Below are positions 4,064-39,411 of a stretch of 39,411 nucleotides of DNA, in pieces. The translations under genes and the position numbers were made by a program. This stretch comes from Gemmataceae bacterium (GTDB lineage Bacteria > Planctomycetota > Planctomycetia > Gemmatales > Gemmataceae): NCBI GenBank assembly GCA_035546275.1, contig DATKHW010000362.1, positions 1-39,411 on the forward strand, written 5' to 3'. The notes beneath the pieces are model-generated. The model saw only the letters and a program-made list of their open reading frames with translations, ran no database searches and had not been told where the DNA came from. How positions within the stretch are numbered: the stretch's first letter is position 1; each line of letters opens with the position of its first letter.

Positions 4064-4075
4064 GCAGCACCCGCT

Positions 4076-4124
4076 CCCCCTCGCCTTACCCTCTGTCCTG
4101 GGGAAAGAGGGTAAGGCGAGGGGG
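4076..4124. repeat. perfect 19-bp-stem palindrome (CCCCCTCGCCTTACCCTCT-N11-AGAGGGTAAGGCGAGGGGG), family A
   Basis: Read directly. Lies in the divergent spacer, 13 nt upstream of the activator ATG at 4063. Arms nearly identical to those at 12262-12316. Confidence 0.9.
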
Positions 4125-4208
4125 AAATGAGAATGGAAGCCGAGACGTCAGATTCATTTTCGGAACCGCGGCGGGGGCTGTCCACCCGCGCCGCCATGCG
4201 AGGTCGTC

Positions 4209-7200
4209 ATGCGCGAAACACTCCGCGCCCGGCTGGTCGCCTGCGCCGTGGCCGTGCTGGCCACGGCCGCTTGTCTTTTGATCCGCTGGCCGCTTTGGCC
4301 GCTGCTGGAGGACGCGGTCCCCCACATGACCTTTTTGCCGGCGGTCATGGTCGCCGCGTACTTCGGCGGCTTCTGGCCCGGCCTGCTGGCCACCGGCCTC
4401 AGCGCCCTGGCCGCGAACTATTTCTTCACCAAGCAGCTCAGCCCGTTCCACGTTCGCAGCGTCAACGACGTGGCGGCTTTGGTCCTCTTCCTTGTGGTCG
4501 GAGTTATCGTCAGCGCCCTGTGCGAGTCCCTGCACCGGGCGCGGCGCCGCCTCGTGGAGCGGGAGCGGCGGCGGGCCGAGGAGGCCCTGCGCGAGACCGA
4601 GGAGCGCTTCCGGCAACTGGCGGAGAATATCCACGAGATCTACTGGATGATGGACGCACGGGACGGCCGGATACTGTATATCAGCCCCGGCTACGAAGAG
4701 GCGGCGGGGCGGTCGCGCCAGGAACTCTACGATAAGCCGGAATCCTGGGTCCGGATCCTCCACCCCGACGACCGGGACAAGATGGCGGCGATTCTAGAGC
4801 GGTACCGGCGCGGCGCTTTCCCGGAGGCGGAGTTCCGGCTGATGCGCCCGGACGGCTTGGTCCGCTGGCTGCGAAGCCGCGCCTTCCCCGTCCACGACAC
4901 CGGCGGCAGTCCGTCGCGTTTCGCCGGCCTGGCCGAGGACATTACCGAACGCAAGCGGTCCGAAGAAGCGCTGCGGGAAAGCGAACAGCGGTTTCGGACG
5001 TTCGTGGACCACGCCGCCGACGCGTTCTTCCTGCACGAGGAAGGTACGGCCCGCATTCTGGACGCGAACCGCCAGGCGTGCGAGAGCCTGGGGTACACGC
5101 GGGACGAGCTGCTGGGAATGAACGCTTTCGACTTCGACCCCGACCACACCCCGGCCCGCCGTGAGGACCTCCTGCGGCAGCTCGCCGCCGGTAAGACGGC
5201 CGCGTTCGAGTCCCGACATCGGCGCAAGAACGGGACGATCTTTCCGGTAGAGATCCGGGCGCAGGAATTCATGGAGGGCGGCCGGCGGTTCCTGGTTTCC
5301 CTGGCCCGGGACGTCACGGAACGCAAACAGGACGAAGCGCTGCTCATAAGCCAAAAGCACATCCTGAAGATGATTGTCCAGGGTGAGCCGCTGCCCCACG
5401 TCCTGTCGGCCCTTTGCCGGGGGATGGAAGACCTGGCGCATGGTGAAATGCTGACCTCCGTACTCCTGCTCGACGCCGACGGCGTCCACATGCGGCATGG
5501 AGCGGCGCCGAGCCTTCCCGAGAGTTACGTCCGAGCGATCGACGGCTTCTCCATCGGTCCGTCCGTGGGGTCGTGCGGCACGGCGGCGTACCGTCGCGAG
5601 CCTGTCTACGTCTCGGACATCGCCAACGATCCCCTGTGGGCGCCCTACGCCGGGTTGGCGCTGCCTCACGGCCTGCGCGCCTGCTGGTCGTCGCCCATCC
5701 TCTCCAGCACCGGCGAGGTGCTCGGCACGTTCGCCGCATATTACAAGCAGCCGCGGAGTCCCACGCCGCGAGACCTGCGCACCGTGGACATCTTCACCCG
5801 CACGGCCGCCGTCGCCATCGAGAAGAGCCAGGCCGAGCAGGCGCTGCGGGAAAGCGAGCAGCGGTTCCGCGGCACATTCGAGAATGCCGCCGTCGGCATC
5901 TTCCATACGGACGCCGACGGCCGCTTCCTGCGCGTCAACGAGAAGTTCTGCGCCATCGTCGCCTACCCCCGCGAGGAGCTGTTCGGGAAGACGTTTCGGG
6001 ACCTCACGCACCCCGACGACCTGGCCGTGGGGGCCGAATTCTTCGCGCCGCTCATGCGGGGCGAGCTGGCCAGCTACGCGCTGGAGAAGCGCTACGTTCG
6101 CAAGGACGGTTCGCCCGTCTGGGTGGAGTTGTTTATCTCGCTCCAGCGCGACGCGGCGGGCGCCCCCGCCTATTCCATCGCGGTGCTCCAGGACATCTCG
6201 GAGCGCAAGCGGCTGGAAGCGGAGCTGCGGCGCGCAAAGGAGGCGGATGCCGAGCGCGCTCGGCTGGCCGAGCTGGGCCGCGACGTGGGCGTCGCCCTGA
6301 GCGGCGGCGTCACGCTGAACGAGTTCCTCCAGCCCTGCGCCGAGGCCCTGGTGCGTTACCTGGACGCGGCCTTCGCGCGCATCTGGTGGCTGCCGCCCGG
6401 CGAGGAAGTTCTGGAGCTGCAGGCCAGCGCGGGCCTGTACACCCACCTGGACGGCGACCACTCCCGTATCCCTATCGGACGGCTCAAGATCGGCCGGATC
6501 GCCCGGGAGCGTCGGCCGGTGCTCACCAACGAGGTCCAGACCGACCCGTGCGTCAGCGACCCGGACTGGGCCAAGCGCGAGGGCATGGTCGCCTTCGCCG
6601 GCTTCCCCCTCGTCGTCAACGACCGCCTGCTGGGCGTGCTCGGCATGTTCGCCCGCCGGCCCCTGTCGCCGGCCGTGCTTCAGGCGCTGGAATCGACGGC
6701 CGCCCTGATCGCCCTGGGCATCGAGCGCAAGCTGCGGGGGATAGAGCTGCGGCAGGCGAAGGAGGCGGCGGAGGCGGCCAACCGGGCCAAAGACGAGTTC
6801 CTGGCCAACGTCAGCCACGAGATCCGCACCCCCATGAACGCCATCTTCGGCATGACCGAGCTGGTCCTCGACTCGCCGCTGACGGACGACCAGCGGCAGT
6901 GCCTGCGGACGGTCAAGTCGGCGGCAGACAGTTTGCTGGGCATCATCAACGACCTGCTCGACTTCTCCAAGATCGAGGCCGGCAAGATGGAGCTGGACCA
7001 TGCCGACTTCTCGCTGCGTTCGGCGGTTGGGGACACGCTGCGGGCCCTGGCCGCGCGCGCCCAGGCGGCGGGGCTGGAGCTGGCCTGTCACATCGAGCCG
7101 GACGCGCCGGACGCCCTCGTCGGGGATGCGGGCCGGCTGCGGCAAGTGCTGCTTAACCTGGTGGGTAATGCGATCAAATTCACGGAACGAGGCGAGGTGG

Positions 7201-8429
7201 TCGTCGCCGTGAAAATGATGAATGATCAATGCGGAATGATGAATCCAGACGACTCCAGCGATTCGGGTTCTGATATTCATCATTCATCATTCATCGTTCT
7301 GCATTTCTCGGTCCGCGACACCGGCATCGGCATCCCCAAGGACAAGCAGGCGTCGATCTTCCGGGCCTTTGAGCAGGAGGACGCCTCGACCACGCGCAAG
7401 TACGGCGGCACCGGCCTGGGCCTGAGCATCGCCTCGCGGCTGGTCGCCCTGATGGGCGGGACGATCACGGTGGACAGCGAGCCGGGGCGCGGCAGCACCT
7501 TCGCCTTCACAGCCCGTTTCGGACCGCAGCCGCACCCGTCGGCGAGCGGCCGGCATGAGCCGGCCGGTGAGGGTGGGAACGAGCTTACCCCGCCCCTGCA
7601 GAGCAGCCGCTCGCCGCTGCGCATCCTGGCGGCCGAGGACAACGAGTTCAATGCGCAGCTCCTGGAGCAGCTGCTGGGGCGACGCGGACATCAGGTGCGG
7701 CTGGCGAACAACGGCCGGGACGCACTGGCGCTGGCGGAGGAAGGAACCTTCGACCTGCTGCTCCTGGACGTCCACATGCCGGAAATGGACGGTTTTCAAG
7801 TCGCCCGGGCGATCCGTGAGCGGGAGCGCTCGACGGGCGGCCATTTGCCCATCATCGCCCTGACCGCGCGGTCGCGGAACGCGGACCGCGAGCAGTGCCT
7901 GGCGGCCGGCATGGACGATTTCCTGATCAAGCCGATCCGGGCCGCCGACCTGTGGGCGGCGATCGAACGGGCCCTTCTGAGGGATGAGGGAAGAGGGATG
8001 AAGGATGAAGGAAAGCCGGGCGTCCCTCCTGGCTCATCCTTCATCCCTCATCCCTCATCCCTTCTGGACGCGCCGGTGCTGCTCGCCGCCTGCGGGGGCG
8101 ATGCGGCTATTCTGGAGAAGATTTGTCAGGCATTTCGAGCCAGCCTGCCGAATCAGCTGGCGGCCGTACAGGAAGCTCTGGGTCAGCAGGACGCGCCGCG
8201 CTTGCGCGAGGCCGCGCACAAGCTGTCGAGCATGGTCGCGACGTTTTCCACAAGGGCCGGCGGCGTGGCGTCCGACCTCGAAGATCATGCGGCAGGCGGC
8301 CGGCTCGAAGAGGCTCGGCCGCTGGTCGCTCGGCTGGAGGCGATGGCGGAGGAACTGCTGCGGGAGGCAGGCGGCCTGTCGCTCGACGCCCTGCGAGGAC
8401 AGGCGGCGCCTGCCGCATTAACCCGCTGA
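4209..8429 (+). CDS. hybrid sensor histidine kinase (DUF4118-like membrane module, PAS x3, GAF x2, HisKA, HATPase, receiver, Hpt)
   Basis: N-terminal hydrophobic KdpD-like module. Repeated EEALRESEQRFR PAS linkers. H-box FLANVSHEIRTPMNAI, N-box NLVGNAIKFT, G-boxes DTGIGI and GGTGLGLSI. Receiver LLLLDVHMPEMDG..IIALTA..FLIKP. Hpt EAAHKLSSMVATFS. Confidence 0.95.
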   Translation: MRETLRARLVACAVAVLATAACLLIRWPLWPLLEDAVPHMTFLPAVMVAAYFGGFWPGLLATGLSALAANYFFTKQLSPFHVRSVNDVAALVLFLVVGVIVSALCESLHRARRRLVERERRRAEEALRETEERFRQLAENIHEIYWMMDARDGRILYISPGYEEAAGRSRQELYDKPESWVRILHPDDRDKMAAILERYRRGAFPEAEFRLMRPDGLVRWLRSRAFPVHDTGGSPSRFAGLAEDITERKRSEEALRESEQRFRTFVDHAADAFFLHEEGTARILDANRQACESLGYTRDELLGMNAFDFDPDHTPARREDLLRQLAAGKTAAFESRHRRKNGTIFPVEIRAQEFMEGGRRFLVSLARDVTERKQDEALLISQKHILKMIVQGEPLPHVLSALCRGMEDLAHGEMLTSVLLLDADGVHMRHGAAPSLPESYVRAIDGFSIGPSVGSCGTAAYRREPVYVSDIANDPLWAPYAGLALPHGLRACWSSPILSSTGEVLGTFAAYYKQPRSPTPRDLRTVDIFTRTAAVAIEKSQAEQALRESEQRFRGTFENAAVGIFHTDADGRFLRVNEKFCAIVAYPREELFGKTFRDLTHPDDLAVGAEFFAPLMRGELASYALEKRYVRKDGSPVWVELFISLQRDAAGAPAYSIAVLQDISERKRLEAELRRAKEADAERARLAELGRDVGVALSGGVTLNEFLQPCAEALVRYLDAAFARIWWLPPGEEVLELQASAGLYTHLDGDHSRIPIGRLKIGRIARERRPVLTNEVQTDPCVSDPDWAKREGMVAFAGFPLVVNDRLLGVLGMFARRPLSPAVLQALESTAALIALGIERKLRGIELRQAKEAAEAANRAKDEFLANVSHEIRTPMNAIFGMTELVLDSPLTDDQRQCLRTVKSAADSLLGIINDLLDFSKIEAGKMELDHADFSLRSAVGDTLRALAARAQAAGLELACHIEPDAPDALVGDAGRLRQVLLNLVGNAIKFTERGEVVVAVKMMNDQCGMMNPDDSSDSGSDIHHSSFIVLHFSVRDTGIGIPKDKQASIFRAFEQEDASTTRKYGGTGLGLSIASRLVALMGGTITVDSEPGRGSTFAFTARFGPQPHPSASGRHEPAGEGGNELTPPLQSSRSPLRILAAEDNEFNAQLLEQLLGRRGHQVRLANNGRDALALAEEGTFDLLLLDVHMPEMDGFQVARAIRERERSTGGHLPIIALTARSRNADREQCLAAGMDDFLIKPIRAADLWAAIERALLRDEGRGMKDEGKPGVPPGSSFIPHPSSLLDAPVLLAACGGDAAILEKICQAFRASLPNQLAAVQEALGQQDAPRLREAAHKLSSMVATFSTRAGGVASDLEDHAAGGRLEEARPLVARLEAMAEELLREAGGLSLDALRGQAAPAALTR
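7215..7304. repeat. imperfect AT-richer palindrome (ATGATGAATGA...TCATTCATCAT), in frame inside the HATPase domain, family C variant
   Basis: Inner arms GAATGATGAAT (7234-7244) and ATTCATCATTC (7275-7285) pair perfectly; outer arms pair only with shifts. Translates to MMNDQCGMMN...IHHSSFIV between the N-box and G1-box. Confidence 0.7.
7562..7617. repeat. family B element (degenerate left arm, TTACCCCGCCCCTGCA..AGCCGCTCGCC), in frame in the kinase-to-receiver linker
   Basis: Aligns over 56 nt with 14368-14423 (about 10 mismatches, mostly in the left arm). Translated GEGGNELTPPLQSSRSP. Confidence 0.75.
7981..8061. repeat. 28-bp-arm inverted repeat (GGGATGAGGGAAGAGGGATGAAGGATGA / TCATCCTTCATCCCTCATCCCTCATCCC), in frame in the receiver-to-Hpt linker, family C
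   Basis: Arms 7981-8008 and 8034-8061 are complementary with 1 mismatch. Translated RDEGRGMKDEG...SSFIPHPSSL. Confidence 0.9.
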
Positions 8430-8440
8430 AGGGTTAGAGT

Positions 8441-8572
8441 CTGTCCCATAAGCCCCTCGCCCCCGTACTCGGGGGAGAGGGGCGAGGGGGCATGGTTTCC
8501 TGGGCCAAAAACCCCTCACCCCCGACCCCTCTCCCCGGAGTACCGGGGAGAGGGGAGAAGCTTATGGGACAG
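8441..8572. repeat. composite nested palindromic element between convergent genes
   Basis: Outer 13-nt inverted repeat CTGTCCCATAAGC (8441-8453) / GCTTATGGGACAG (8560-8572). It encloses two hairpins: CCCCTCGCCCC (8453-8463) with GGGGCGAGGGG (8479-8489), and CCCCTCTCCCCGG (8526-8538) with CCGGGGAGAGGGG (8543-8555). Confidence 0.9.
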
Positions 8573-10931: not shown

Positions 10932-11014
10932 CGAAAAACCGAAGAGGCGCCGGGTCGCACGGACGCGACCCGCCTTGCCGCACCGGATTGGCGCGGGATG
11001 ACCCGGAGGAGACC

Positions 11015-14000
11015 ATGTGGATCGTTCGACTGGCCTTGCGCCGTACCTACACGTTCGTGGTGGTCGCGCTGCTGATCGGCGTGCTCGGTCTGGTCAGCAT
11101 TAACCGCATGTCCACCGACATCTTCCCCGAAGTCAACATCCCCGTCGTTTCCGTGGTCTGGCAGTATTTTGGTATGCCGGCCGACGAGATCGAAACGCGC
11201 ATCATCCTCGTGAACGAGCGCGTTCTGACCGCCTCCGTCAACGGCATCGAACACATCGAAAGCCAGTCGCTCGACGGCGTCGGCGTCATTCGCGTCTACT
11301 TCTACCCCGGCGCGAAGGTCGCGGACGGCGAGGCCCAGATCACAGCCACCTGCCAGACGCTGCTCAAGGTCCTGCCGCCCGGCATCACGCCGCCCTACAT
11401 CGTCCAGTACAGCGCCACCAGCGTCCCCATCGTCCAGATCGCCGTCTCCAGCGACACGCTCACCGAGGCCCAGCTCTACGACTACGCCTCCAACTTCATC
11501 ATCCAGCGGCTCGGCACGGTCCAGGGGGCGCGTGTGCCCCAGCCTTACGGCGGCAAGGTGCGCCAGGTCATGGTCGATCTTGACCTGCCGGAACTCTATG
11601 CCCGCGGCCTGTCGCCCAATGACATCGCCACAACCGTCCTGAACCAGAACCCGATCATCCCCGCCGGGACCGCCAAGATCGGCGACACCGAGTACGACGT
11701 CAAGCTCAACAACAGCCCCGACCTGGTCAATACGTTCAACTTCATGCCGGTCAAGACGGTCAACGGCGTTCCGATTTATCTCAAGGACGTGGCCCACGTG
11801 CGCGACGGCTTCGCCGTGCAGACCAACATCGTCCGGCGCGACGGCCGGCGGGCGGTGCTGATGACCATTCTCAAGGCCGAGGGCGCTTCCACCATCGACA
11901 TCGTCCGGCGGCTCCGCGAGGCGATGCCCGGCGTTCAGGCCCAGCTGCCGCCGGATATCAAGCTAGAATTTCTCTTCGACCAGTCCGTGTTCGTGGAGAA
12001 CGCGGTCCAGGGGGTGCTCAAGGAGGGGGCGATCGCGGCGGGGCTGACGGCCCTCATGATCCTGCTGTTCCTCGGATCGTGGCGCAGCACGCTCATCGTG
12101 GCCGTGTCGATCCCGCTGTCGATCCTGACGTCGATCATCGTGCTGTGGGCGATGGGGCAGTCGCTCAACATCATGACGCTGGGCGGCATGGCCCTGGCGG
12201 TCGGCATCCTGGTGGACGACGCCACAGTGGAGCTGGAAAACACCCACCGCAACATGGGCGCCCCCCTCACCCTACCCTCTCCCCCATCGGTTGGGGGAGA
12301 GGGTAGGGTGAGGGGGAAAACCATGCGCGAGGCCATCCTGGACAGCGCCGCCCAGGTCGCCACGCCCGCCCTGGTGTCCACGCTTTGCATCTGCATTGTC
12401 TTCCTACCCGTTGTGTTTCTGACCGGCCCGGCCGCGTCGCTGTTCATTCCGCTGGCATTGGCCGTCGTCTTCGCCATGCTGGCGTCGTACTTCCTGTCGC
12501 GCACCCTCGTGCCGACGATGATGCTGTACCTGCTGCCGAAGGAGATGCATCTCTACCAAGGCGGCGACACGAGCCCGCAGCCCAAGCAAGGGAGTCGGTT
12601 CAACGCCCTCGCCTTCCCCTTCGTGTGGCTTTCCAACACGATATGGCGCGTCCACCACGCCTTTGATCGCGCCTTCGAACGGCTGCGGTCGGCCTATACC
12701 GGATTGCTGGGCCGGGCCATCGACCGTCCGTGGCTGACAGCAGGGGCGATGCTCGGCTTCGCCCTGGCGTCGCTGGCGCTGTTCCCGACGATCGGTCAGG
12801 ACTTCTTCCCAGCCGTGGACGCCGGCCAGTTCCGGCTGCACGTCCGCGCCCCGGCCGGCACGCGCATTGAGGAAACCGAGGCGCTCTTCGGTCGGGTGGA
12901 GGACGTCATCCGCCAGGTGGTGCCCGACCAGGAACGGTCCATGATCCTCGACAACATGGGGCTGACGCAGTCGTTCACCATCATGGCCTACCTGGACAAC
13001 GGCACGGTCAGCGACTCCGACGGCGAGATCCTCGTCTCCCTCAAGCCGAACCACAAGCCGACCGAGGACTATGTGGCCCGTTTGCGGCGCGAGCTGCCGA
13101 ACCGCTTCCCCGGCTGCACCTTCTATTTCATGCCGGCCGACATCACGAGCCAGATCCTCGACTTCGGCCTGCCGGCACCGATCGACGTGCAGGTGGTCGG
13201 CGTGGACGCCAAGGACAACCTCGCGCTCGCCAAGAAACTGCAAGCCGGGATCGCCAAGCTCCCCGGCCTGACCGACGTCCACATCCACCAGATCACCGAC
13301 CGGCGCGACCTGCGCGTGGACGTGGACCGCATCGAGGCGTCGCAGCTCGGCCTGACGGAGAACGACGTGGCCAACAACTTGTTGGTCTCGCTCAGCTCCA
13401 CCTACCAGGTTTCGCCCAACTACTGGGTCAACCCGCAGAACCGCGTCAACTACCGCGTGGCCGTGCAGACCCCGGACTGGCACATGAACTCTGTCGCGGC
13501 GCTTGAGAGCACGCCGATCATCGTCAACATCGGCGCAGCCGGCGCCACGAACGCCGGCGGCACGGCGATGGTGAACACGCCGAACCTGCCCACCACGGGG
13601 CAGCCGCAGCTCCTGAGCAACCTGATCAATCTCCGCCGCACCACCTCGGAGCAGGTGGTCAACCATTACAACGTCCAGCGCGTCTACGACATCTACGCCG
13701 GGGTACAGGGGCGCGACCTGGGCGGGGCGTCCGCGGACGTGCAAAAGGTCGTGGACTCGCTGAAGGCGGAGTTGCCGCGCGGCAGCACGATCAACGTCCG
13801 CGGCCAGGTGCAGAGCATGAACAGCTCGTTCCTGGGTCTGGCCGGCGGACTGGTGTTCGCGGTGCTGCTGGTCTATTTCCTGATGGTGGTGAACTTCCAG
13901 TCGTGGCTCGACCCATTCATCATCCTCACCGCCCTGCCCGGGGCGTTGGCCGGCATCGTCTGGATTCTGTTCGCCACGCACACGACCATCAGCGTGCCGG

Positions 14001-14455
14001 CCCTGATGGGAGCGATGATGTGCGTCGGCGTGGCCACGTCCAACAGCATTCTGATGGTCACCTTCGCCAACGACGAGCGGCGGGCGGGCAAGGACGCCCG
14101 CGCCGCGGCTCTATCGGCGGGGACGACGCGGCTGCGGCCGGTGCTGATGACGGCCCTGGCGATGATCGTCGGGATGCTGCCAATGTCGCTCGGCCTGGGC
14201 GACGGCGGCGAGGAGAACGCGCCGCTGGGCCGGGCCGTCATCGGCGGCCTGCTGGTCGCCACGCTGTTCACGCTGGTGTTCGTGCCAGTGATGTACCGCC
14301 TGCTGCGGCGGAAGGCGCCGCGGCCGGAACAAGACGGAGACGACGCGGCGAGCGACCGTGGCGAGCCGGCTGGCGAGGGTAAGGGCGGGGTTACCCCGCC
14401 CCTGCAAGCCAGCCGCTCGCCGGAAGAAATCATGCTCCAGGGAGGCCAATCATGA
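11015..14455 (+). CDS. RND-family efflux permease (AcrB/HAE-like)
   Basis: MWIVRLALRRTYTFVVVALLI start with GGAGGAG upstream (track start 10988 is TTG). 12-TM RND layout with two large loops. Motif GGMALAVGILVDDATVELEN. About 1146 aa. Confidence 0.95.
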   Translation: MWIVRLALRRTYTFVVVALLIGVLGLVSINRMSTDIFPEVNIPVVSVVWQYFGMPADEIETRIILVNERVLTASVNGIEHIESQSLDGVGVIRVYFYPGAKVADGEAQITATCQTLLKVLPPGITPPYIVQYSATSVPIVQIAVSSDTLTEAQLYDYASNFIIQRLGTVQGARVPQPYGGKVRQVMVDLDLPELYARGLSPNDIATTVLNQNPIIPAGTAKIGDTEYDVKLNNSPDLVNTFNFMPVKTVNGVPIYLKDVAHVRDGFAVQTNIVRRDGRRAVLMTILKAEGASTIDIVRRLREAMPGVQAQLPPDIKLEFLFDQSVFVENAVQGVLKEGAIAAGLTALMILLFLGSWRSTLIVAVSIPLSILTSIIVLWAMGQSLNIMTLGGMALAVGILVDDATVELENTHRNMGAPLTLPSPPSVGGEGRVRGKTMREAILDSAAQVATPALVSTLCICIVFLPVVFLTGPAASLFIPLALAVVFAMLASYFLSRTLVPTMMLYLLPKEMHLYQGGDTSPQPKQGSRFNALAFPFVWLSNTIWRVHHAFDRAFERLRSAYTGLLGRAIDRPWLTAGAMLGFALASLALFPTIGQDFFPAVDAGQFRLHVRAPAGTRIEETEALFGRVEDVIRQVVPDQERSMILDNMGLTQSFTIMAYLDNGTVSDSDGEILVSLKPNHKPTEDYVARLRRELPNRFPGCTFYFMPADITSQILDFGLPAPIDVQVVGVDAKDNLALAKKLQAGIAKLPGLTDVHIHQITDRRDLRVDVDRIEASQLGLTENDVANNLLVSLSSTYQVSPNYWVNPQNRVNYRVAVQTPDWHMNSVAALESTPIIVNIGAAGATNAGGTAMVNTPNLPTTGQPQLLSNLINLRRTTSEQVVNHYNVQRVYDIYAGVQGRDLGGASADVQKVVDSLKAELPRGSTINVRGQVQSMNSSFLGLAGGLVFAVLLVYFLMVVNFQSWLDPFIILTALPGALAGIVWILFATHTTISVPALMGAMMCVGVATSNSILMVTFANDERRAGKDARAAALSAGTTRLRPVLMTALAMIVGMLPMSLGLGDGGEENAPLGRAVIGGLLVATLFTLVFVPVMYRLLRRKAPRPEQDGDDAASDRGEPAGEGKGGVTPPLQASRSPEEIMLQGGQS
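12262..12316. repeat. perfect 25-bp-stem, 5-nt-loop palindrome in frame inside the RND permease, family A
   Basis: CCCCCTCACCCTACCCTCTCCCCCA tcggt TGGGGGAGAGGGTAGGGTGAGGGGG. Translated PLTLPSPPSVGGEGRVRG immediately after the conserved VDDATVELENTHRNM segment. Confidence 0.92.
14368..14423. repeat. family B element (AGGGCGGGG-TTA-CCCCGCCCT core) in frame in the RND C-terminal tail
   Basis: Core palindrome at 14382-14402. Translated GEGKGGVTPPLQASRSP. Confidence 0.85.
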
Positions 14456-15732
14456 ACGGCATTTCGCACAGCGAATCCTTGAACGGCCGCGCCGACTGCG
14501 ACAAAGGTAGGGGCGGGGTAACCCCGCCCCTACGCGCCCGCCGCTCACTGCGGGGCCGTTGGGGGATGATCGGACTGGGGGCGCTGCTTCTCGTCGGCCT
14601 GGGCGGCCTGTTCGCTGTTGGACTCCTCCCCCGGCTCCAAAGCACGCAGGCGCTGAACGCCGCAGCCGCCGCAAAAGCCGCCGCCACGCCGATCGTGCAG
14701 ACGGCCGTCGCCACGCGCGCCCCGGCCGACGCCCAGCGCGAGCTGCCCGGCAACTGCCTGCCGCTCTACGAGGCGGCGCTCTTCGCCCGCGCCACCGGCT
14801 ACCTGAGCGAACGGCGCGTGGACATCGGCGACCGCGTCGAGGAGGGCCAGCTGCTCGCGAATATTTCCTCCCCGGACGTGGACGACCAGCTGGCCCAGGC
14901 GCAGGCCGATCTCGCCCAAGCGGAGGCGAACCTCAAGCTGAACCAGGCCAATTACGACCTGGCCAAGATCACCCTGTCGCGGGACGTCCAGGCGGGGAAC
15001 GTCGCCGTGCCGGCCCAGCAGGTCGATCAAGATCGGGCCACGCTGGGCACGACGGAGGCCAGCGTCAAGGCCGCACAGGCCGCCATCGGCGTCAACAAAG
15101 CGTCGGTGCAGCGGTACGCCGACCTGCAATCCTTCGAGAAGATCCAGGCGCCCTTCCACGGCGTCATCACCGTGCGCAACTACGACAAGGGGGCGCTCAT
15201 CACGGCCGACGACCCGACCACCCTGCCGCTGTTCCGCCTAGCTCAGATTGACGTGGTGCGCGTCTTCGTCAATGTGCCGCAGGTGTTCGCCTCGGGCATC
15301 CAGGACGGGCAGTACGCCGAGGTCTACCGGCGCGAGGATCCCAATCGCAAGTATTCCGGCCGGGTGACGCGCACGGCCAACTCGCTGGACCCCAACACCC
15401 GTACGCTGCTGACCGAGGTGGATGTGCCCAACCCCGACGGCGCCCTGCTGCCGGGCATGTACCTTCAGGTGAATTTCAACTTCCCGCGCCTGGCGCCCAC
15501 GGTCATGGTCCCGAGCGCGGCGATCACGTTCCGCGCCGACGGAGCGTGGGTCGGCGTGCTGGACGAGCGGAACGCCGTCCATTATCAGAAAGTCCAGACC
15601 GGGCGCGATTTCGGCACGGAAATGGAGGTATTGGACGGGCTGAACGAGGGGGCCGCGGTGATCGTGCGGCCCGGCGACGAGCTGGCCGACGGGACGGCGG
15701 TTCAGCCGGCCGACCCCGCGAAGTCCAATTAG
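14452..15732 (+). CDS. RND efflux periplasmic adaptor (membrane fusion protein, HlyD-like)
   Basis: ATGA overlap with the pump stop and GGAGG 6 nt upstream. N-terminal TM helix MIGLGALLLVGLGGLFAVGLL. Coiled-coil segment (AQAQADLAQAEANLKLNQANYDLAK) and beta-barrel-like C-terminus. Confidence 0.9.
   Translation: MNGISHSESLNGRADCDKGRGGVTPPLRARRSLRGRWGMIGLGALLLVGLGGLFAVGLLPRLQSTQALNAAAAAKAAATPIVQTAVATRAPADAQRELPGNCLPLYEAALFARATGYLSERRVDIGDRVEEGQLLANISSPDVDDQLAQAQADLAQAEANLKLNQANYDLAKITLSRDVQAGNVAVPAQQVDQDRATLGTTEASVKAAQAAIGVNKASVQRYADLQSFEKIQAPFHGVITVRNYDKGALITADDPTTLPLFRLAQIDVVRVFVNVPQVFASGIQDGQYAEVYRREDPNRKYSGRVTRTANSLDPNTRTLLTEVDVPNPDGALLPGMYLQVNFNFPRLAPTVMVPSAAITFRADGAWVGVLDERNAVHYQKVQTGRDFGTEMEVLDGLNEGAAVIVRPGDELADGTAVQPADPAKSN
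14506..14548. repeat. family B element (GTAGGGGCGGGGT-A-ACCCCGCCCCTAC, 13-bp arms) in frame in the adaptor N-terminal tail
   Basis: Core palindrome at 14507-14533. Translated KGRGGVTPPLRARRSL, in the same element frame as the other two copies. Confidence 0.85.
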
Positions 15733-15741
15733 GAGGCGGCC

Positions 15742-16272
15742 ATGTTTGCTGCAAACAAGCAGTCCACCGCAGGGCTGGCGTTCGGGATTCTGGCGCTCTT
15801 GCTGTCGGCCGGCGAGACGCACGCCCAGCAGAGCGGCGCCCCGCCGATGAGCAATCCGCCGGCGAAGCGACGGGCGGCGCGCCAGGGGATGCAGCAGGTA
15901 AACGCCCTGCAGCAGCAGGTGAACGCCATGCTTCTGCAGCAGGCGATGAATTCCGCTCAGCAAACGACGCTGACCATCGCCCAGCAGCAGCTGTTCGTTT
16001 CACAGCAACCCTCGATGAGCGCCTTGCAGCAGCAACAGGCCGCCTTGCTGTTGCAGCAGAACGCCGTGAAACAACTCCAGCAACAGGTGACGGCCTTGCA
16101 GCAGCAGCTGAACGCCGTACCGGCGCAGCCGCTGGGGCCTTTCGCGACTTTGCAGATGGGCATATTGCAGCAGCAGACGGCGGTCGCGGCCCAGCAGAAC
16201 GATCTGCAGGAGCAGCAGCTGACAGCCTTGGAGCAGCAGATCGCGAACGCGCTGGGGCAGCCGGGGCCGTAA
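15742..16272 (+). CDS. secreted Gln/Leu-rich coiled-coil protein, unknown function
   Basis: AGGAGG 5 nt upstream; starts 10 nt after the adaptor stop. Signal peptide AGLAFGILALLLSAGETHA. Heptad-like QQQV/LQQQ repeats. 176 aa. Confidence 0.7.
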   Translation: MFAANKQSTAGLAFGILALLLSAGETHAQQSGAPPMSNPPAKRRAARQGMQQVNALQQQVNAMLLQQAMNSAQQTTLTIAQQQLFVSQQPSMSALQQQQAALLLQQNAVKQLQQQVTALQQQLNAVPAQPLGPFATLQMGILQQQTAVAAQQNDLQEQQLTALEQQIANALGQPGP

Positions 16273-16345: not shown

Positions 16346-17944
16346 TCATGCTTCGTCGGCTTCGGCGGATTGCGTGATGTGCAGCCCCAGGTCGCGGAGC
16401 TTCGCGCGCAGGGTTTGCCGGGCGATCCCCAGCAGGCGGGCCGCCTGGAACTGGTTGCCGCGGGTGAACTCCAGGACGCGCGGCAGCAAGACTCGGTCCA
16501 CCTCGCGGCGCGTTTTCGCATACAGGTCTTGAGCGTCCCGCGCCAACCGCCGGCGGATGAATGGTTCCAGGTTGAGGGCAGGCGAGCCGGGCCCGTCAGC
16601 AGCCGGAGCGCTCCGGTCGCCGACGCTCCCGGCTCGCTCCGTTGCGAGTTCGGGCAGGAAGGCCGGCAGCAGGACCGGGCCGCTGGCTTGAAGCAGGGCC
16701 TGCTTGAGCACGCTCTGCAGCTCCCGGATGTTGCCCGGCCAGGAGTAGCCGTGCAGCCGCTCCATCGCCTCCAGGGAAACCGCGCGGACCTCCCGCCCCA
16801 GCTCCCGGCTGAAGCGGCGCAGGAAGTACCGCACGAGTACGGCAAGATCGTCGCCGCGCTCGCGCAACGGCGGCAGGTGGATGGAGAAGACGCCCAACCG
16901 GTAGTACAGATCCGGCCGGAATCGCCCCTCAGCCGACCAGACCGCCAGGTCTCGGTGCGTCGCGGTGATGATCCGCACGTCGGTCCGAATGGTCTCGTTG
17001 CCGCCGAGGCGCTCGAAGGATTGTTCTTGAAGAAGCCGCAGAATCTTCGCCTGGAGCGACAGCGGCATGTCGCCGATTTCGTCCAGGAAGAGCGTGCCGC
17101 CGTGGCACTGCTCGAACTTGCCGATGCGTCGGCGGTCGGCACCGGTGAAGGCGCCCTTCTCGTGGCCGAACAGCTCGCTTTCCAGGAGGTTTTCAGGAAT
17201 GGCGGCGCAGTTGAGCGCCAGGAAGGGCGCTTTCGCCCGCGGGCCGTGGCGGTGGACCGCGCGGGCGATCAGCTCCTTGCCCGTGCCGCTCTCGCCGGTG
17301 ATCAGCACCGGCATGTCCTGGGCGGCGACGCGGCCGACGGCCTTGTATACCTCGGCCATGGCCGGGCAGGACCCGATCATGCCGGCCTCGACGCTCGCGT
17401 CCGCCTCGTTTTCCTCCGCCACGGCCGGCTGACGCATGCGCCGGGCGACGTCCAGCGCCTCGCCGACCACCCGCTGCAGCTGGGGCAAGTCGAGCGGCTG
17501 AAACAGGCAGTCGTAGGCGCCGTGCTTGATGACCTCGATAGCGGCGTCGGCCCGCCTGTGCCGGGCGACGAAAACAACCGGGACGTGGGCGTTGATGCGG
17601 CGGATTTGCTGATAGACCTCCAACCCGCACCCATCCGGCAAGCACTGGTCGAGGACGATCACGTCCGGCGAATCGCTGCGGACCTGCTCCAGTCCGAAGT
17701 CGCTGTCGCCGGCTGTCCGCACCCGGTAGACGGGCGCGGGGAACGCCTGGCGCAACTGCTGCTGCCTTTGCGTCGTTGCGTCGCCGATGAAGAGCAGGCG
17801 GCCGGCGCCGACGTCAGCCTTCTTGTCCTCAATTTCCAGAATGTGCAAATCTGGGGCGTGGCGGTTCTCTCGGTTCGCGGCCGTCTGCGGGACGCAGTAG
17901 GGCGGCCAATGGTGCGTGTTCAACTTCGCCGTCGCCTCCAACAT
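16346..17944 (-). CDS. sigma54-dependent activator (NtrC family) with degenerate receiver and about 48-aa N-terminal extension
   Basis: [23 protein letters not shown] and [26 protein letters not shown]. The receiver keeps the Asp (VIVLDQCLPD) but has LLFIGDA, VFVARH (no Thr/Ser) and CLFQPLD (Lys to Gln). Confidence 0.92.
   Translation of the reverse strand: MLEATAKLNTHHWPPYCVPQTAANRENRHAPDLHILEIEDKKADVGAGRLLFIGDATTQRQQQLRQAFPAPVYRVRTAGDSDFGLEQVRSDSPDVIVLDQCLPDGCGLEVYQQIRRINAHVPVVFVARHRRADAAIEVIKHGAYDCLFQPLDLPQLQRVVGEALDVARRMRQPAVAEENEADASVEAGMIGSCPAMAEVYKAVGRVAAQDMPVLITGESGTGKELIARAVHRHGPRAKAPFLALNCAAIPENLLESELFGHEKGAFTGADRRRIGKFEQCHGGTLFLDEIGDMPLSLQAKILRLLQEQSFERLGGNETIRTDVRIITATHRDLAVWSAEGRFRPDLYYRLGVFSIHLPPLRERGDDLAVLVRYFLRRFSRELGREVRAVSLEAMERLHGYSWPGNIRELQSVLKQALLQASGPVLLPAFLPELATERAGSVGDRSAPAADGPGSPALNLEPFIRRRLARDAQDLYAKTRREVDRVLLPRVLEFTRGNQFQAARLLGIARQTLRAKLRDLGLHITQSAEADEA
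16992..17185. repeat. 194-nt tract about 97% identical to 3255-3448
   Basis: See the partner entry at 3255-3448. Confidence 0.85.
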
Positions 17945-18120
17945 GCAATCCTCCTCTCGCGGATCATGCCCGGAAAGGCGTACCTCATTGTGCGCCGCGC
18001 TTTCACCGGATCAAACCGTCATCCGGCCTAACTTTTCCATTACCCTTCTGAGCGTGGCGGAGGGACAGGGCATCTGTTATGATCGACGCCGACGCCCCGA
18101 CCCCTCGGTCCCAACTCCTC

Positions 18121-18717
18121 ATGAGCGGCGAACCCACCACCGGCGCCGTCCAGCGCTACCTGAACGCCCTGGCCGGGGACCAGCCCGCCGAGCCGATCGT
18201 GCGGGCGCTGCTCGACCGATCTGCCCGCCGTTTGCATCTTCTGTGCGCGAATCTTCTGCACCGCAATTACGCGCGGCTGACGCTGCCGCCCTTGAACTTG
18301 CAGGCCGACGAACTGCTCAGCGCCGTGGTGGAGCGCCTGCTCAAGGCGATGCGCTCGGTCCGCCCGCAGACCGTGCGCCAGTTCTTCGCGCTGGTCAACC
18401 AGCACATGCGCTGGGAGCTGAATGACCTGGCCCGCCGCTTAGATGAACAGCCGGCAGCCATAGCGCTGCAAGAAGGGATGGCGCCGGCGCCGGACAGCAG
18501 CGGCTCCGTCCTGACTCCGGACGGCCGCCGGATGCTGGAAGCGATCGACCGCCTGCCGGAGGAGGAGCGGGAGGTTTTCGGTTTGGTGCGCGTTCAGGGC
18601 CTGACGCAGCGCGAAGCCGGCGAAGTGCTCGACGTCTCCGCCAAGACGGTGCAGCGGCGCCTGAACCGCTCGCTGTTGCTGCTGGCGAAGGAGCTGGACG
18701 ATTTGCGCCCGACCTAG
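18121..18717 (+). CDS. ECF-type RNA polymerase sigma factor (kinase-associated type)
   Basis: Region 4 LPEEEREVFGLVRVQGLTQREAGEVLDVSAKTVQRRLNRSL. The N-terminus aligns with the paralogue at 37264-37881 from MSGEPTTGAVQRYL, so I prefer ATG 18121. The track start 18079 remains possible. Confidence 0.85.
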   Translation: MSGEPTTGAVQRYLNALAGDQPAEPIVRALLDRSARRLHLLCANLLHRNYARLTLPPLNLQADELLSAVVERLLKAMRSVRPQTVRQFFALVNQHMRWELNDLARRLDEQPAAIALQEGMAPAPDSSGSVLTPDGRRMLEAIDRLPEEEREVFGLVRVQGLTQREAGEVLDVSAKTVQRRLNRSLLLLAKELDDLRPT

Positions 18718-18735
18718 AGGAGGGGCGACCCCGTC

Positions 18736-21700
18736 ATGTCCGACGATTCACGTGTAGAGGAATTGCTGGAGGAACTGCTCGACTCGGGCGGCAGCCCCGA
18801 AGAGGTCTGCCGCGCGTGCCCCGACCTGTTGCCGCAGGTCCGCGCCGGCTGGAGGCGGTTGCGCGCCCTGCATGCCCAGGTCGTCGCGTTGTTTCCCGAG
18901 ACCACCCTGCTCGACGACGTCGAACCCGATGGGGCGACGCCGCACCCGCCGCCGGCCGCGCTGCCGCGGATCCCCGGCTATGAGGTGCAGGCGGTCCTGG
19001 GCCACGGCGGCATGGGCGTCGTTTACAAGGCTTGGCACGTGCGGCTGCACCGCGCCGTCGCCCTGAAAATGCTTCTCGCCGGCCCCGGCGCCCGGCCGGA
19101 GGAGCTGGAGCGGTTCCTGCGCGAGGCCGAAGCCGTGGCCGGCCTGCGCCACCCCAACATCGTCCAAATCCACGACATCGGCGACCTGGACGGCCGGCCG
19201 TATTTCACCATGGAATTCGTTGAGGGCGGCAGCCTGGCCCGGAAGCTGGCGGGGACTCCGCAGTCGGCTCGCGAGGCCGCCGCCCTGACGGCCGCGCTGG
19301 CCGAGGCCGTCCACGCGGCCCATCAAAGCGGCATCGTCCACCGCGACCTGAAACCGGCCAACGTGCTGCTCACCGCCGACGGCACGCCCAAGATCGCCGA
19401 CTTCGGCCTGGCACGCCGGCTGGAGGGGGGCGCGGGCCTCACCCAGAGCGGCGCCGCCGTGGGGACGCCCAGCTACATGGCCCCCGAGCAGGCTCAGGGC
19501 AAAACGGGGCGGGCCGCCGACATCTACGCCCTCGGGGCGATTCTGTACGAACTGCTGACGGGCCGGCCGCCGTTCCGGGCGGAGACGGCGGTGGAGACGG
19601 TCCTGCAAGTGCTCCACCAGGAGCCGGTCCCGCCGTCGCGCCTGAACGCAAAGACGCCGCGCGACCTGGAGACGATTTGCCTGAAATGCCTCCGCAAAGA
19701 TCCGCAACGGCGTTACGCCGCCGCGGCGGCGCTGGCGGACGACCTGCGGCGGTTCCAGCGCGGCGAACCCGTCCGGGCGCGTCCCGCGAGCCTGCCGTCG
19801 CGCCTGGCCAAGTGGGCGCGCCGTCGCCCGACCCATGCGGCCATGCTCGCCGTGGGCCTCCTTTTCATCGTCGCGCTGGTCGCCGGGGGCGTGTGGCTGG
19901 CGCTGCACCAGGCGGAACGGCGCCGCTTGATCGAAGCGGACTTGAAAGATGTGGCGACTCTGCAAGAGCAGGCCCGCTGGACGGCGGCGCGGGCCGCGCT
20001 GGAACGGGCCGCGGCCCGGCTCGATGGAAGCGTCTCCGACGACCTGCGGGGACGGATCGACCAATCGCGGCGCGACCTCGACCTGGCGACCCAGCTGGAC
20101 GCCGTCCAACTGCGGCGCGAGACCCGCAGCGACCTGCCTTTCTACGACGCCCAGGCGGCCCGGGAGTACGCAGAGGCGTTCCAGAAGGCGGGGCTGGGCA
20201 AGCTCCTCGATCCGCCGGAGCGTGTGGCGGCGATGGTGAACGCATCGGCCGTGCGCAAGGCGCTCGTGGAAGCGCTGGACGACTGGTCGGTCCGCGCGAC
20301 CGACAAGGAGGAGCGGGCCTGGCTGTTGGAGGCTCTGAAGCGGGCGGACCCCGACCCGGAGGGATGGCGGGCGCGCGTCCCGGCGGCGTGGGAGGACGCC
20401 GGGACGCTGGCCGAATTGGCCCGGACCGCGCCAGTCGAGCGGCTGCCGGAGTCCATGATGCTAGCGATTGGGCGACGCTTGAGGGCTTTCCGGCGGGACG
20501 CGGCCCCGTTCTTGAGGCGGGTACAGCAGGCGCATCCCGGCGATTTCTGGCCCAATTTGATCCTCGGCGATGCGCTGCTCCAGGGGAACGCCGAGCAAGC
20601 GGCCGGCTACTACCGAGCGGCGTTAGCAAGCCGGCCGACGGCGGCGGTCGGTTACTGCGCCGTCGGCGACGCCCTGAGATACCACGACGACCTGGATGCG
20701 GCGATCGATTACTATCACAAGGCCCTCCAATTCGACCCTAATTTCGCCAGGGCTCACAACAATCTCGGCCTTTCCCTGCAAGCCCAGGACCAACTGGACG
20801 AGGCGATGGGTTGCTTCCAGAAGGCCGCCCAGCTCGACCCCGACTACGCCTGGGCCCATCTCGATCTCGGCAACCTCCTGCGAGCCAAGGGCCGGCTGGA
20901 CGAGGCCTACGATCAATTCCAGGAGGTCCTCCGCCTGGACCCGACGAACCGGGAAGTCCGAGACCCCCTGAGAAGCATCCTGGTTCGGCGGGGACGAGTG
21001 GAAGAAGTGCAGGCCGAATGGCGCAAGGCGATCGACGCCGACCCGTCTCAGCATGATACGTGGTTCGGCTACGCGGAATTCTGCCTGTTTCTTGGACAGC
21101 CAGAGGAGTACCGCCGCGTCCGCCGGGCCTTGCTCGATCGCTTCGGCGCGACCACCGACCCGTACACGGCCGAGCCGGTCGGCCGGGCCTGCCTGCTGCT
21201 GCCGGCTTCGGAGGAAGAGTTGCAGCAGGCGGCGGCCCTCGCCGACCGCGCCGTGGCCGCCAAGGGATCGACGCCGGCCTGGATTTACCGCTACTTTCTG
21301 TTCGCCAAGGGCCTCGCCGAGTATCGCCAGGGCAGGTACGACAGCGCGATCGCGCTGATGAAAGGGGAAGCGTCCCTGGTCATGGGGCCCTCCCCCCGCG
21401 TAATTGCGGCCATGGCCCAGTACCGAAACGGTCAGGAGAAGCAGGCGCGCAAGACGCTTGCGCTGGCCGTCGTCGGCTTCGATTGGAGCGCCGCCGATGC
21501 GGACAGGCGCGACATCTGGATCGCCCACATCCTCCGCCGCGAGGCCGAGGCCCTGATCCTGCCGGACCTGCCGGCGTTCCTGCGGGGAGAATATCAGCCG
21601 CGGGACGACGACGAAGGCATGGCGCTGGTAGGGGCCTGTCAATTCCAAGGCCTCGACGGCTCCGCGGCCCGCCTGTACGCCGATGCCTTCACGGCCGATC

Positions 21701-22134
21701 CGAACCTGGCCGAGGACCTGGCCGCGCAATGCCTTCGCCGCACGCAACGAAGCGGCCAAAAGCCGGGCGGCGTGCTCGAGAATCTCAACTCGGAATGCCG
21801 TTACCCCGCCGTCCGCTGCGCGGCGCTGGCCGGTTGCGGATTCGGCAAGGATGCGGCCATGCTCAGCGAAGCGGAGCGGACGCGCTGGCGCCGGCAGGCG
21901 CGCAACTGGCTGCGGGCCGACCTGGCCCTGTGGGACAAGATGCTGTCCAGCGATGCGCCGGCGGCCCGCGACCTGGCGGAGAAAATGCTGAGGCGCTGGC
22001 AGATCGATCCCGACCTGGCCGGGCTGCGCGAGCCGGGCGCTATGGACGCGTTGCCGGCGGACGAGCGAGCCGAGTGGGTCGCGCTGTGGAGAGAGGTCGG
22101 CGCCGCGCTCGATCGCGCCCACACGACCCGGTGA
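18736..22134 (+). CDS. membrane Ser/Thr protein kinase with N-terminal CxxC helical module and TPR-rich extracytoplasmic region
   Basis: Starts 18 nt after the sigma gene stop. Hanks motifs GGMGVVYKA, VALK, HRDLKPANVLL, DFGLAR, GTPSYMAPEQ. One TM helix AAMLAVGLLFIVALVAGGVWLAL. TPR-like repeats (AIDYYHKALQFDPNFARAHNNLG etc.). Confidence 0.93.
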   Translation: MSDDSRVEELLEELLDSGGSPEEVCRACPDLLPQVRAGWRRLRALHAQVVALFPETTLLDDVEPDGATPHPPPAALPRIPGYEVQAVLGHGGMGVVYKAWHVRLHRAVALKMLLAGPGARPEELERFLREAEAVAGLRHPNIVQIHDIGDLDGRPYFTMEFVEGGSLARKLAGTPQSAREAAALTAALAEAVHAAHQSGIVHRDLKPANVLLTADGTPKIADFGLARRLEGGAGLTQSGAAVGTPSYMAPEQAQGKTGRAADIYALGAILYELLTGRPPFRAETAVETVLQVLHQEPVPPSRLNAKTPRDLETICLKCLRKDPQRRYAAAAALADDLRRFQRGEPVRARPASLPSRLAKWARRRPTHAAMLAVGLLFIVALVAGGVWLALHQAERRRLIEADLKDVATLQEQARWTAARAALERAAARLDGSVSDDLRGRIDQSRRDLDLATQLDAVQLRRETRSDLPFYDAQAAREYAEAFQKAGLGKLLDPPERVAAMVNASAVRKALVEALDDWSVRATDKEERAWLLEALKRADPDPEGWRARVPAAWEDAGTLAELARTAPVERLPESMMLAIGRRLRAFRRDAAPFLRRVQQAHPGDFWPNLILGDALLQGNAEQAAGYYRAALASRPTAAVGYCAVGDALRYHDDLDAAIDYYHKALQFDPNFARAHNNLGLSLQAQDQLDEAMGCFQKAAQLDPDYAWAHLDLGNLLRAKGRLDEAYDQFQEVLRLDPTNREVRDPLRSILVRRGRVEEVQAEWRKAIDADPSQHDTWFGYAEFCLFLGQPEEYRRVRRALLDRFGATTDPYTAEPVGRACLLLPASEEELQQAAALADRAVAAKGSTPAWIYRYFLFAKGLAEYRQGRYDSAIALMKGEASLVMGPSPRVIAAMAQYRNGQEKQARKTLALAVVGFDWSAADADRRDIWIAHILRREAEALILPDLPAFLRGEYQPRDDDEGMALVGACQFQGLDGSAARLYADAFTADPNLAEDLAAQCLRRTQRSGQKPGGVLENLNSECRYPAVRCAALAGCGFGKDAAMLSEAERTRWRRQARNWLRADLALWDKMLSSDAPAARDLAEKMLRRWQIDPDLAGLREPGAMDALPADERAEWVALWREVGAALDRAHTTR

Positions 22135-22195
22135 GCATCAAGAGGTGCAATGGCCTCAGGGCCGATTCGAGGTTGGTGTAGCGGACGGCGTTCGG

Positions 22196-22276
22196 CGTGG
22201 CCGGGGCTGAGTCTTCGAAGCCCCGGCATACCCTGGAAATGTATGCCGGGGCTTCGAAGACTCAGCCCCGGCCACG
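22196..22276. repeat. perfect 35-bp inverted repeat with 11-nt loop between convergent kinase genes
   Basis: CGTGGCCGGGGCTGAGTCTTCGAAGCCCCGGCATA (22196-22230) and its exact reverse complement (22242-22276). Flanks extend the pairing imperfectly (GTAGCGG / CCGCTAC). Confidence 0.95.
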
Positions 22277-22325
22277 CACGAGCCGCTACGCAAACGCAGA
22301 AAGCGCTTTAGCCGCGTCCGTCCCT

Positions 22326-37230: not shown

Positions 37231-37263
37231 GATGCGACTTCCCCCCCTTGGGCCGGGATCGAG

Positions 37264-37881: not shown

Positions 37882-37977
37882 GGCGACTCCGGTCGGAGCA
37901 CGACAACGGCGGGGAAATTATACCGCGTCGGGATGTTACGCCGCCACGCTTAGGAGGATGGAGCATAGATATTCCCG

Positions 37978-39411
<1,434 letters not shown>

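Follow-up and report, generated by a model that had tools for sequence, protein, structure and literature searches.

Palindromes matching double-foot GTAG REPs lie in-frame in an RND pump, its adaptor and a hybrid histidine kinase of a Gemmataceae bacterium

Double-foot repetitive extragenic palindromes (REPs) form hairpins that the HUH tyrosine transposases of TnpA_REP subclass 2.4 are thought to nick and copy as single-stranded DNA. Double-foot REPs with three G-C pairs at the bottom of the stem have been assigned to this subclass, which equals group 4 of the REP-associated tyrosine transposases (RAYTs), and in-frame REPs have been described inside the tnpA_REP genes of the same subclass (Quentin et al. 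2018, PMC6006769). Intragenic GTAG/CGTC REPs often lie at N- or C-termini or in linkers, often occur as nearby pairs and have been judged neutral, and their published hosts include a sensor histidine kinase and the PVC superphylum (Di Nocera, De Gregorio and Rocco 2013, PMC3733652). With sensor kinases, PVC bacteria and tnpA_REP itself already on this list, we describe here a further member and a further host. In a 39,411-nucleotide stretch of DNA from a Gemmataceae bacterium (assembly GCA_035546275.1, contig DATKHW010000362.1; G+C content 67.7%), hereafter the window, three copies (A, B and C) of a related palindromic element lie in-frame in the C-terminal tail of a resistance-nodulation-division (RND) pump, the N-terminal tail of its adaptor and the linker of a hybrid kinase. 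By its best protein matches, the window derives from a Gemmataceae planctomycete of soil or peat metagenomes. The copies are most probably selfish or neutral REP-type palindromes, belonging probably to a RAYT subclass 2.4 system, which are tolerated in tails and linkers and whose survivors are filtered by stop codons into one peptide.

The copies, their parts and their host genes are the following.

14346..14422, + strand: copy A, a composite element, translated as ASDRGEPAGEGKGGVTPPLQASRSP in the cytoplasmic C-terminal tail of the AcrB-family RND pump
14346-14378 and 14406-14422, + strand: outer arms of copy A, on either side of its core
14379..14405, + strand: core of copy A, GTAAGGGCGGGGTTACCCCGCCCCTGC, matching a double-foot GTAG REP whose feet, GTAA and CTGC, are slightly degenerate
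14507..14533, + strand: core of copy B, GTAGGGGCGGGGTAACCCCGCCCCTAC, a perfect 27-nt palindrome in the N-terminal cytoplasmic tail of the HlyD-family adaptor
14534..14550, + strand: right flank of copy B, GCGCCCGCCGCTCACTG, similar to the right outer arm of copies A and C
7540..7616, + strand: copy C, a composite element, translated as ASGRHEPAGEGGNELTPPLQSSRSP in the linker that joins HATPase_c to the receiver of the hybrid histidine kinase
7573-7599, + strand: core remnant of copy C, with the right arm intact and the left arm decayed
10988..14455, + strand: RND/AcrB-family inner-membrane pump (ACR_tran, 673 bits)
14452..15732, + strand: periplasmic adaptor (membrane-fusion protein; HlyD_D23 in Pfam)
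4209..8429, + strand: hybrid sensor histidine kinase with, in this order, DUF4118, PAS/GAF, HisKA, HATPase_c, REC and Hpt domains

The DNA match among the copies is far beyond chance. Copies A and C have 77 nt in common at 79% identity (14346-14422 versus 7540-7616). In the window, the 21-mer of the element, from which the copy A core differs by one mismatch, has two matches with at most three mismatches versus 0.00 expected, and the 13-mer TWACCCCGCCCCT has five with at most one mismatch versus 0.06 expected; an nhmmer profile made from the three copies finds exactly A, B and C there, all on the + strand. The core of copy B is composed of a 13-bp stem and a 1-nt loop, 27 nt in total. Both composite copies form long, imperfect hairpins, of -52.8 kcal/mol (z -5.05) in copy A and, by way of the outer arms, of a still strong -50.7 kcal/mol (z -5.4) in the 77-nt stretch of copy C; hairpin stability across the copies ranges from -42 to -53 kcal/mol, far above that of shuffled sequence. 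An original prediction, made from the letters of the DNA, had proposed three related in-frame elements, all of them in tails or linkers, and the sequence, the translations and the match statistics bear out the first point while the Pfam boundaries bear out the second. It had drawn the element too short, as the 77-nt match between A and C makes plain, and had described the kinase copy as having a decayed left arm, which is correct, and as having lost its hairpin, although the 77-nt stretch does fold through the outer arms. The peptide that it took to be kept in the kinase is kept in the right arm only, the left arm having been altered non-synonymously from GKGGV to GGNEL. The right-arm peptide TPPLQxSRSP is the same in A and C, and it is kept in copy C because the right-arm DNA is identical, all third positions included; this identity at the DNA level therefore points to recent common DNA descent and not to selection on the peptide.

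Each copy is flanked in one frame by Pfam domains or by conserved orthologous sequence. In the pump, ACR_tran ends at residue 1106 of 1155, upstream of copy A, and the open reading frame (ORF) closes with DRGEPAGEGKGGVTPPLQASRSPEEIMLQGGQS (shorter form GEPAGEGKGGVTPPLQASRSPEEIMLQGGQS) before a TGA stop that overlaps the ATG of the adaptor as ATGA. The pump tail 3' of copy A (EEIMLQGGQS-stop) resembles the ends of orthologous tails (EGIVPEGAQP-stop), and the ATGA overlap is conserved. The adaptor ORF opens with MNGISHSESLNGRADCDKGRGGVTPPLRARRSLRGRWGMIGLG, copy B preceding the transmembrane helix, and its N-terminus 5' of copy B aligns with orthologue N-termini (MSETPRIDSSNS..., MxxTxRxDSSNS), which therefore places the adaptor start at ATG 14452. 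A start at ATG 14566, which would render copy B non-coding, was rejected, since the orthologue N-termini align 5' of the element and the ATGA is conserved. The kinase ORF at copy C reads GRHEPAGEGGNELTPPLQSSRSPLRILAAEDN, positioned between HATPase_c, which ends at residue 1103, and Response_reg, which starts at residue 1139. The presence of same-frame conserved protein sequence on both sides argues that all three copies are truly translated in the stated frame.

The core consensus is a perfect 27-nt palindrome, GTAGGGGCGGGGTWACCCCGCCCCTAC, that is, GTAG-GGGCGGGGTWACCCCGCCC-CTAC. Its length and 13-bp stem fall within the size of REPs, which are G+C-rich stem-loops of about 20-40 nt. As a class, REPs recur many times in a host genome, for the most part between genes, and go with a cognate HUH/Y1 transposase gene that contains the REP or has it on its flanks. 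Compared with the REP foot (GT[AG]G, joined in double-foot REPs by a 3' C[TC]AC), copy B is exact (GTAG...CTAC) and the feet are degenerate in copy A (GTAA...CTGC) and copy C (GTGG...CTGC). Judged from its letters, the core matches the double-foot GTAG REP, the type tied in the literature to TnpA_REP subclass 2.4 / RAYT group 4. A scan for the 19-nt core GGGCGGGGTWACCCCGCCC covered one genome per species, and its counts are lower bounds that refer to the matches listed. The 19-nt core is present in more than 118 stretches from Cyanobacteria, Chloroflexi, Desulfobacterota, Brocadiales and other Planctomycetota, Omnitrophota, Patescibacteria, Poribacteria, Zixibacteria, Nitrospirota and others, often several times per genome, and many of the host genomes have about 40-50% G+C. 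Chance as the origin of the cross-phylum matches was rejected on account of the multiple copies per genome in A+T-rich genomes. When the matches are aligned, the 27-mer is the conserved unit and the flanks are unrelated; sister palindromes nearby have a common GTAGGGGC...GCCCCTAC frame with different inner stems. Among the matches listed, the perfect 27-mer makes up 43 of the 119 copies elsewhere, and 96 of these 119 copies, which belong to other phyla, lie outside long ORFs. No Rfam family reaches its gathering score anywhere in the window, and a scan of viral contigs for the 27-mer gave no matches and thus no sign of phage carriage.

The 27-mer amounts to nine codons, and since 27 nt is a multiple of three, a clean insertion leaves the host frame unshifted. 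The phase xRGGVTPPLx is always open and is the same on both strands; VGAG(L/stop)PRPY has a TAA stop if the central base is A; and x(stop)GRG(Y/N)PAPT is always stopped by a TAG that comes from the GTAG foot. Three of the six phase-and-orientation readings are open, and RGGVTPPL is given by two of these three. Three concordant copies are therefore unremarkable, since three surviving genic copies would all be read as GGVTPPL with a prior probability of (2/3)^3, or about 0.30. The core of the perfect copy B reads (G)RGGVTPPL with both remaining + frames stopped (TAA, TAG), and the frame in use is the only open one on its strand.

For an empirical set, open spans of at least 450 nt reaching at least 90 nt to each side were collected among the 119 copies elsewhere. 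Long open spans of this kind hold 23 of the 119, with 15 read as RGGVTPP, 4 as VGAGLPRP and 4 as GRGNPAP, the last with degenerate feet; the 15 RGGVTPP among 19 do not depart from the expected two thirds (15:4 versus 2:1, p=0.19). Many of the hosts are, by Pfam, ordinary genes unrelated to one another, among them ornithine carbamoyltransferase (OTCase), MurD, CobS, CobT, DnaE, a family-B polymerase (PolB), photolyase, an amine-oxidase-type desaturase and a DPD-like oxidoreductase. The proposal in the original prediction that insertions survive only in a stop-free frame is essentially right, with the refinement that half of the readings are open and two of the open ones encode the same peptide, and the test of frame usage that it named, run on the copies of other genomes, fits a stop-codon filter. 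Several genic 27-mer copies (L066, L079, L100, L040) are in DNA replication or repair genes, namely DnaE, the family-B polymerase, photolyase and a RecO-like ORF, the last label resting on a reading of the sequence only. An enrichment of intragenic REPs in replication and repair genes was noted by Di Nocera et al. 2013 (PMC3733652).

Five Gemmataceae loci (L120, L121, L125, L126 and L127) contain the same pump-adaptor operon, with adaptor identities of 66-87%, and L120 is syntenic for the kinase too. No copy of the core is found in these five orthologous loci, which total 87 kb. The orthologous pump tails that are readable (the 3' end of the L126 RND gene is out of frame) are rich in P, A and G and similar in length, as in the tail ending RPEHDAADGAAGPEAPSPAPPAAGGAPGQEGIVPEGAQP before its stop, and the adaptor N-terminal tails are variable with basic residues at the end before the transmembrane helix. 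The orthologue comparison proposed in the original prediction thus finds tails of similar length that lack the element, which sits in pre-existing, fast-evolving and presumably disordered segments and is itself not conserved. In the tail region the DNA is too diverged from L120 and L121 for exact insertion boundaries or target sites to be read from the alignment. No Pfam family covers the tails. An exhaustive HMMER search with the 36-residue pump tail against 1.84 billion representatives gave no matches, the query being short and biased and its power limited; a word-indexed protein search with a 52-residue concatenation of the A and C peptides gave six candidates, none of them scored. Soil metagenome runs contained at most 14% of the words, and their mapped contigs cover only the conserved transmembrane part of RND genes; none of these contigs extends across an element, and the reads thus gave no evidence of presence/absence polymorphism.

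The element is also present within transposase genes of the RAYT type.

L047 6563-7177, - strand: RAYT-like Y1 transposase gene
L128 10001-10555: RAYT-like Y1 transposase gene
L129 3-638: RAYT-like Y1 transposase gene
L002 7436-7995: RAYT-like Y1 transposase gene

The identical 27-mer lies in-frame inside the RAYT-like ORFs of L047 (Zixibacteria) and L128 (a locus with 39% G+C), a two-hairpin or doublet version is found in the L129 gene, and the L002 gene has a 65-nt insert with the frame broken. The insert is positioned between the HUH motif and LGQIVAYFK. When the insert is removed, the L047 protein scores above the Pfam Y1_Tnp threshold, and its best NCBIfam model is REP_Tyr_transpos, at a score under that family's cut-off. 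Palindrome-derived peptides occupy the insert position in 100 of the 120 best homologues of the L047 protein, and they do so in two frames, either as CRGGVTPP...GEETSPLQ or as VGAGLPRPY and VGAGSPRP...GRGDRAPT. The use of two frames at one position of the protein indicates that what is conserved is the DNA palindrome rather than the peptide.

In their outer flanks (GGCGAGCGRCCG...GAGCCGGC / GCCGCTCGCC), A and C carry the arms of another, longer palindrome. In L121 this outer palindrome stands without the GTAG core exactly at the position of copy B (GGCGAGCGGCCGGCGTGAGCCGGCTG...CAGCCGGCTCACGCCGGCCGCTCGCC, reading ASGRREPAG...AHAGRSP), and the right flank of copy B is similar to its right arm; the local copies therefore consist of a GTAG core placed inside a second palindrome. 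Three metagenome matches to the right half of the composite, ACCCCGCCCCTRCNNNCNGCCGCTC, were put down to chance, none of them having the left arm. Copy C is placed at a difference in domain content, since the window kinase has one receiver domain and its 72%-identical orthologue in L120 has two, with copy C exactly at the junction. The difference is about 145 residues, is bounded by copy C (window ~7530-7625 versus L120 653-2173), and may be a loss or a gain.

If the copies are selfish REP-type palindromes, a GTAG REP core between the arms of a longer palindrome would have landed in three genes, probably mobilised by a RAYT, and the copies would have persisted because their 27 nt leave the downstream frame untouched, because they stand in a stop-free phase, and because the segments that received them, two cytoplasmic tails and an inter-domain linker, are disordered and poorly conserved and could take up about 9-25 additional residues without harm. 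The inserts would on this account be neutral, and GGVTPPL(Q/R)xxRS would be the translation of the only phase open in both orientations, a by-product without a function of its own. Several observations weigh against it. The decay of copy C is asymmetric, with a perfect right arm and 6 of 13 positions changed in the left arm, which is not expected under simple neutral decay. The copies in the window all lie in genes and none between genes, although the sample is three and the window gene-dense. Copies in other genomes, selected by ORF span, underlie the frame statistics, and only about half of the hosts were verified by Pfam. A tblastn search of the 39-kb window and the five related loci found no RAYT gene. 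The composite of outer arms and core is found nowhere else in the metagenome collection, and local spread may therefore have gone through recombination or gene conversion rather than transposition.

Taken further, this last point gives an account in which the copies arose by ectopic recombination, gene conversion or template switching between palindromes already present, with the outer arms as homology and the GTAG core carried along, and in which the kinase copy marks the place where recombination removed a receiver domain; we consider it possible, though unlikely. It would be in keeping with an A/C match that includes the outer arms, with the core-less palindrome of L121 at the exact copy B site, with a composite found nowhere else in the metagenome collection, with copy C standing where L120 has its extra REC domain and with a window devoid of RAYT genes. 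However, only 39 kb of the genome are known, the REC difference may be a gain as well as a loss, and the perfect 27-mer of copy B is the widely dispersed mobile form. A more speculative extension, of which we are decidedly doubtful, would make REPs active remodelers: the core would prefer the loop of a resident palindrome, recombination between copies would have deleted the receiver and rewritten the tails of pump and adaptor alike, and the hairpin pair would have become a regulator of translational coupling. Hairpin-targeted integration of this kind would explain the nested composite at all three sites. An RNA-level role of the hairpins, through mRNA stability, ribosome transit or translational coupling that tunes the pump-to-adaptor ratio and leaves the peptide irrelevant, is improbable. 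The stems are extremely stable, one lying about 30 nt upstream of the overlapping ATGA and the other about 55 nt downstream of it, REPs typically occur in nearby pairs, and they have been reported to affect mRNA stability and the expression of flanking genes (literature summarised in PMC3733652). Against such a role, the orthologues keep the ATGA coupling without any hairpin, copy C lies in a kinase without comparable context, and no Rfam family matches.

The original prediction had also raised the possibility that the peptide has acquired a function, and a functional motif, such as a signal for docking or degradation in the cytoplasm that both pump partners and the kinase would share and whose frame would be kept by protein selection, is highly improbable. 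The two partners of one pump do carry the peptide within 130 nt of each other, and A and C agree fully in their right-arm peptide, but that agreement extends to the DNA with all its third positions, and the left-arm residues have changed non-synonymously. The element is absent from the five orthologous loci, whose tails are of similar length; the same peptide occurs in OTCase, MurD, CobS, RecO-like, PolB and RAYT proteins of other phyla; VGAGLPRPY is in use near its expected proportion, the frame distribution fitting the stop-codon filter; and no family with the 36-residue tail was found among the 1.84 billion representatives. Copies spread over the stop-free frames in proportion, together with orthologues lacking the element, are what the original prediction had named as evidence against a functional peptide, and both were found here, with a frame sample that comes from many genomes and not from the source genome.

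Apart from the REP-type copies, the window is rich in in-frame palindromes of other families without counterpart in the orthologues, and palindrome colonisation of coding DNA is therefore general in this genome.

12253-12325: palindrome with a 25-bp stem, CCCCCTCACCCTACCCTCTCCCCC...GGGGGAGAGGGTAGGGTGAGGGGG, in-frame in a cytoplasmic loop of the pump after VDDATVELEN, read as NMGAPLTLPSPPSVGGEGRVRGKTM
7213-7306: A+T-rich heptamer-based palindrome, in-frame in the HATPase_c lid (KMMNDQCGMMN...HHSSFIV)
7978-8062: palindrome GAGGGATGAAGGATGAAGG...CCTTCATCCTTCATCCCTC, in-frame in the REC-Hpt linker, read as DEGRGMKDEGKPGVPPGSSFIPHPSS, absent from L120

The palindrome at 12253-12325 is absent from all four orthologues, and relatives of it are intergenic on both sides of the kinase gene (4070-4127 and 8453-8555). 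At the position of the HATPase_c lid insert, L120 (~520-640) carries another palindrome (GEWRVA... / SPLATRHSPL) and a frameshift by which the gene call is split, and L127 has no insert; the orthologues therefore have different palindromes at one site. Further repeats were observed elsewhere in the window. A perfect 37-bp inverted repeat with a 9-nt loop (22195-22277), probably intergenic, directly follows a Ser/Thr kinase ORF (18736-22134). Three paralogous DNA blocks with 77-82% identity lie at 2636-4057, 16352-17800 and 38251-39411, the middle one corresponding to a gene annotated as a sigma-54-dependent response regulator in the L001 gene calls, and a duplicated block is present in inverted orientation at 18104-19793 and 36143-37898, with the first copy overlapping the ECF-sigma and Ser/Thr kinase genes (18079-22134). 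Degenerate, CAGCAG-rich periodic repeats of 21 and 30 nt (15891-16261), Q-rich and coiled-coil-like, are contained in a small ORF 3' of the adaptor.

With these observations, the hosts of intragenic double-foot REPs come to include Gemmataceae and, among genes, those of an RND pump, of the adaptor of this pump and of a hybrid kinase; nesting in a composite and location at a domain junction are minor twists on a known theme. They also call for caution in annotation and motif hunting, as a short peptide that recurs in unrelated proteins of GC-rich environmental bacteria can be REP read-through. Because the GTAG and CTAC feet contain stops, survivors are automatically funnelled into a single peptide, and the rule for judging frame bias in such a 27-nt, nine-codon element, with three open readings out of six and two of the open ones identical, is reusable. 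As to how palindromes may promote indels in linkers, the nesting and the copy at a domain-loss junction offer small leads.

Among described systems, the present core is most like the double-foot GTAG REPs (Quentin et al. 2018, PMC6006769; Bertels et al. 2017 as cited there), with which it shares the GTAG foot and its 3' CTAC complement, the three G-C pairs at the bottom of the stem and the patchy distribution across phyla, and the identical 27-mer is found inside such transposase genes in L047 and L128. The window differs in having no cognate transposase and in having local copies nested in the arms of a second palindrome. The intragenic GTAG/CGTC REPs of Di Nocera et al. (PMC3733652) are likewise short, G+C-rich, GTAG-tagged stem-loops in ORFs of known proteins, although the present stem sequence is not among the families in the available portions of that paper's text and supplements, and Gemmataceae were unsampled there. 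As in REP doublets, or REPINs (Bertels and Rainey 2011, PMC3116915), copies A and B form a close pair, 128 nt apart, and their loop bases, T and A respectively, make the cores formally inverted. A and B as a single REPIN were rejected, since the spacer, which holds the end of the pump tail, the stop/start overlap and the adaptor N-terminus, is host gene sequence common to orthologues lacking REPs. The Rickettsia palindromic elements (RPEs; Ogata et al. 2000 as cited in PMC3733652) are the classic analogue, being selfish palindromic repeats that sit in-frame in functional protein genes and add a peptide at tolerant positions. In all three copies described here, the insert is in-frame and the host domains are kept on both sides. 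RPEs are longer (~100-150 bp), A+T-rich and specific to Rickettsia, with no GTAG foot known in RPE-1 and no known sequence relation to the present element, which may be likened to an RPE by functional analogy only and is not classed as one.

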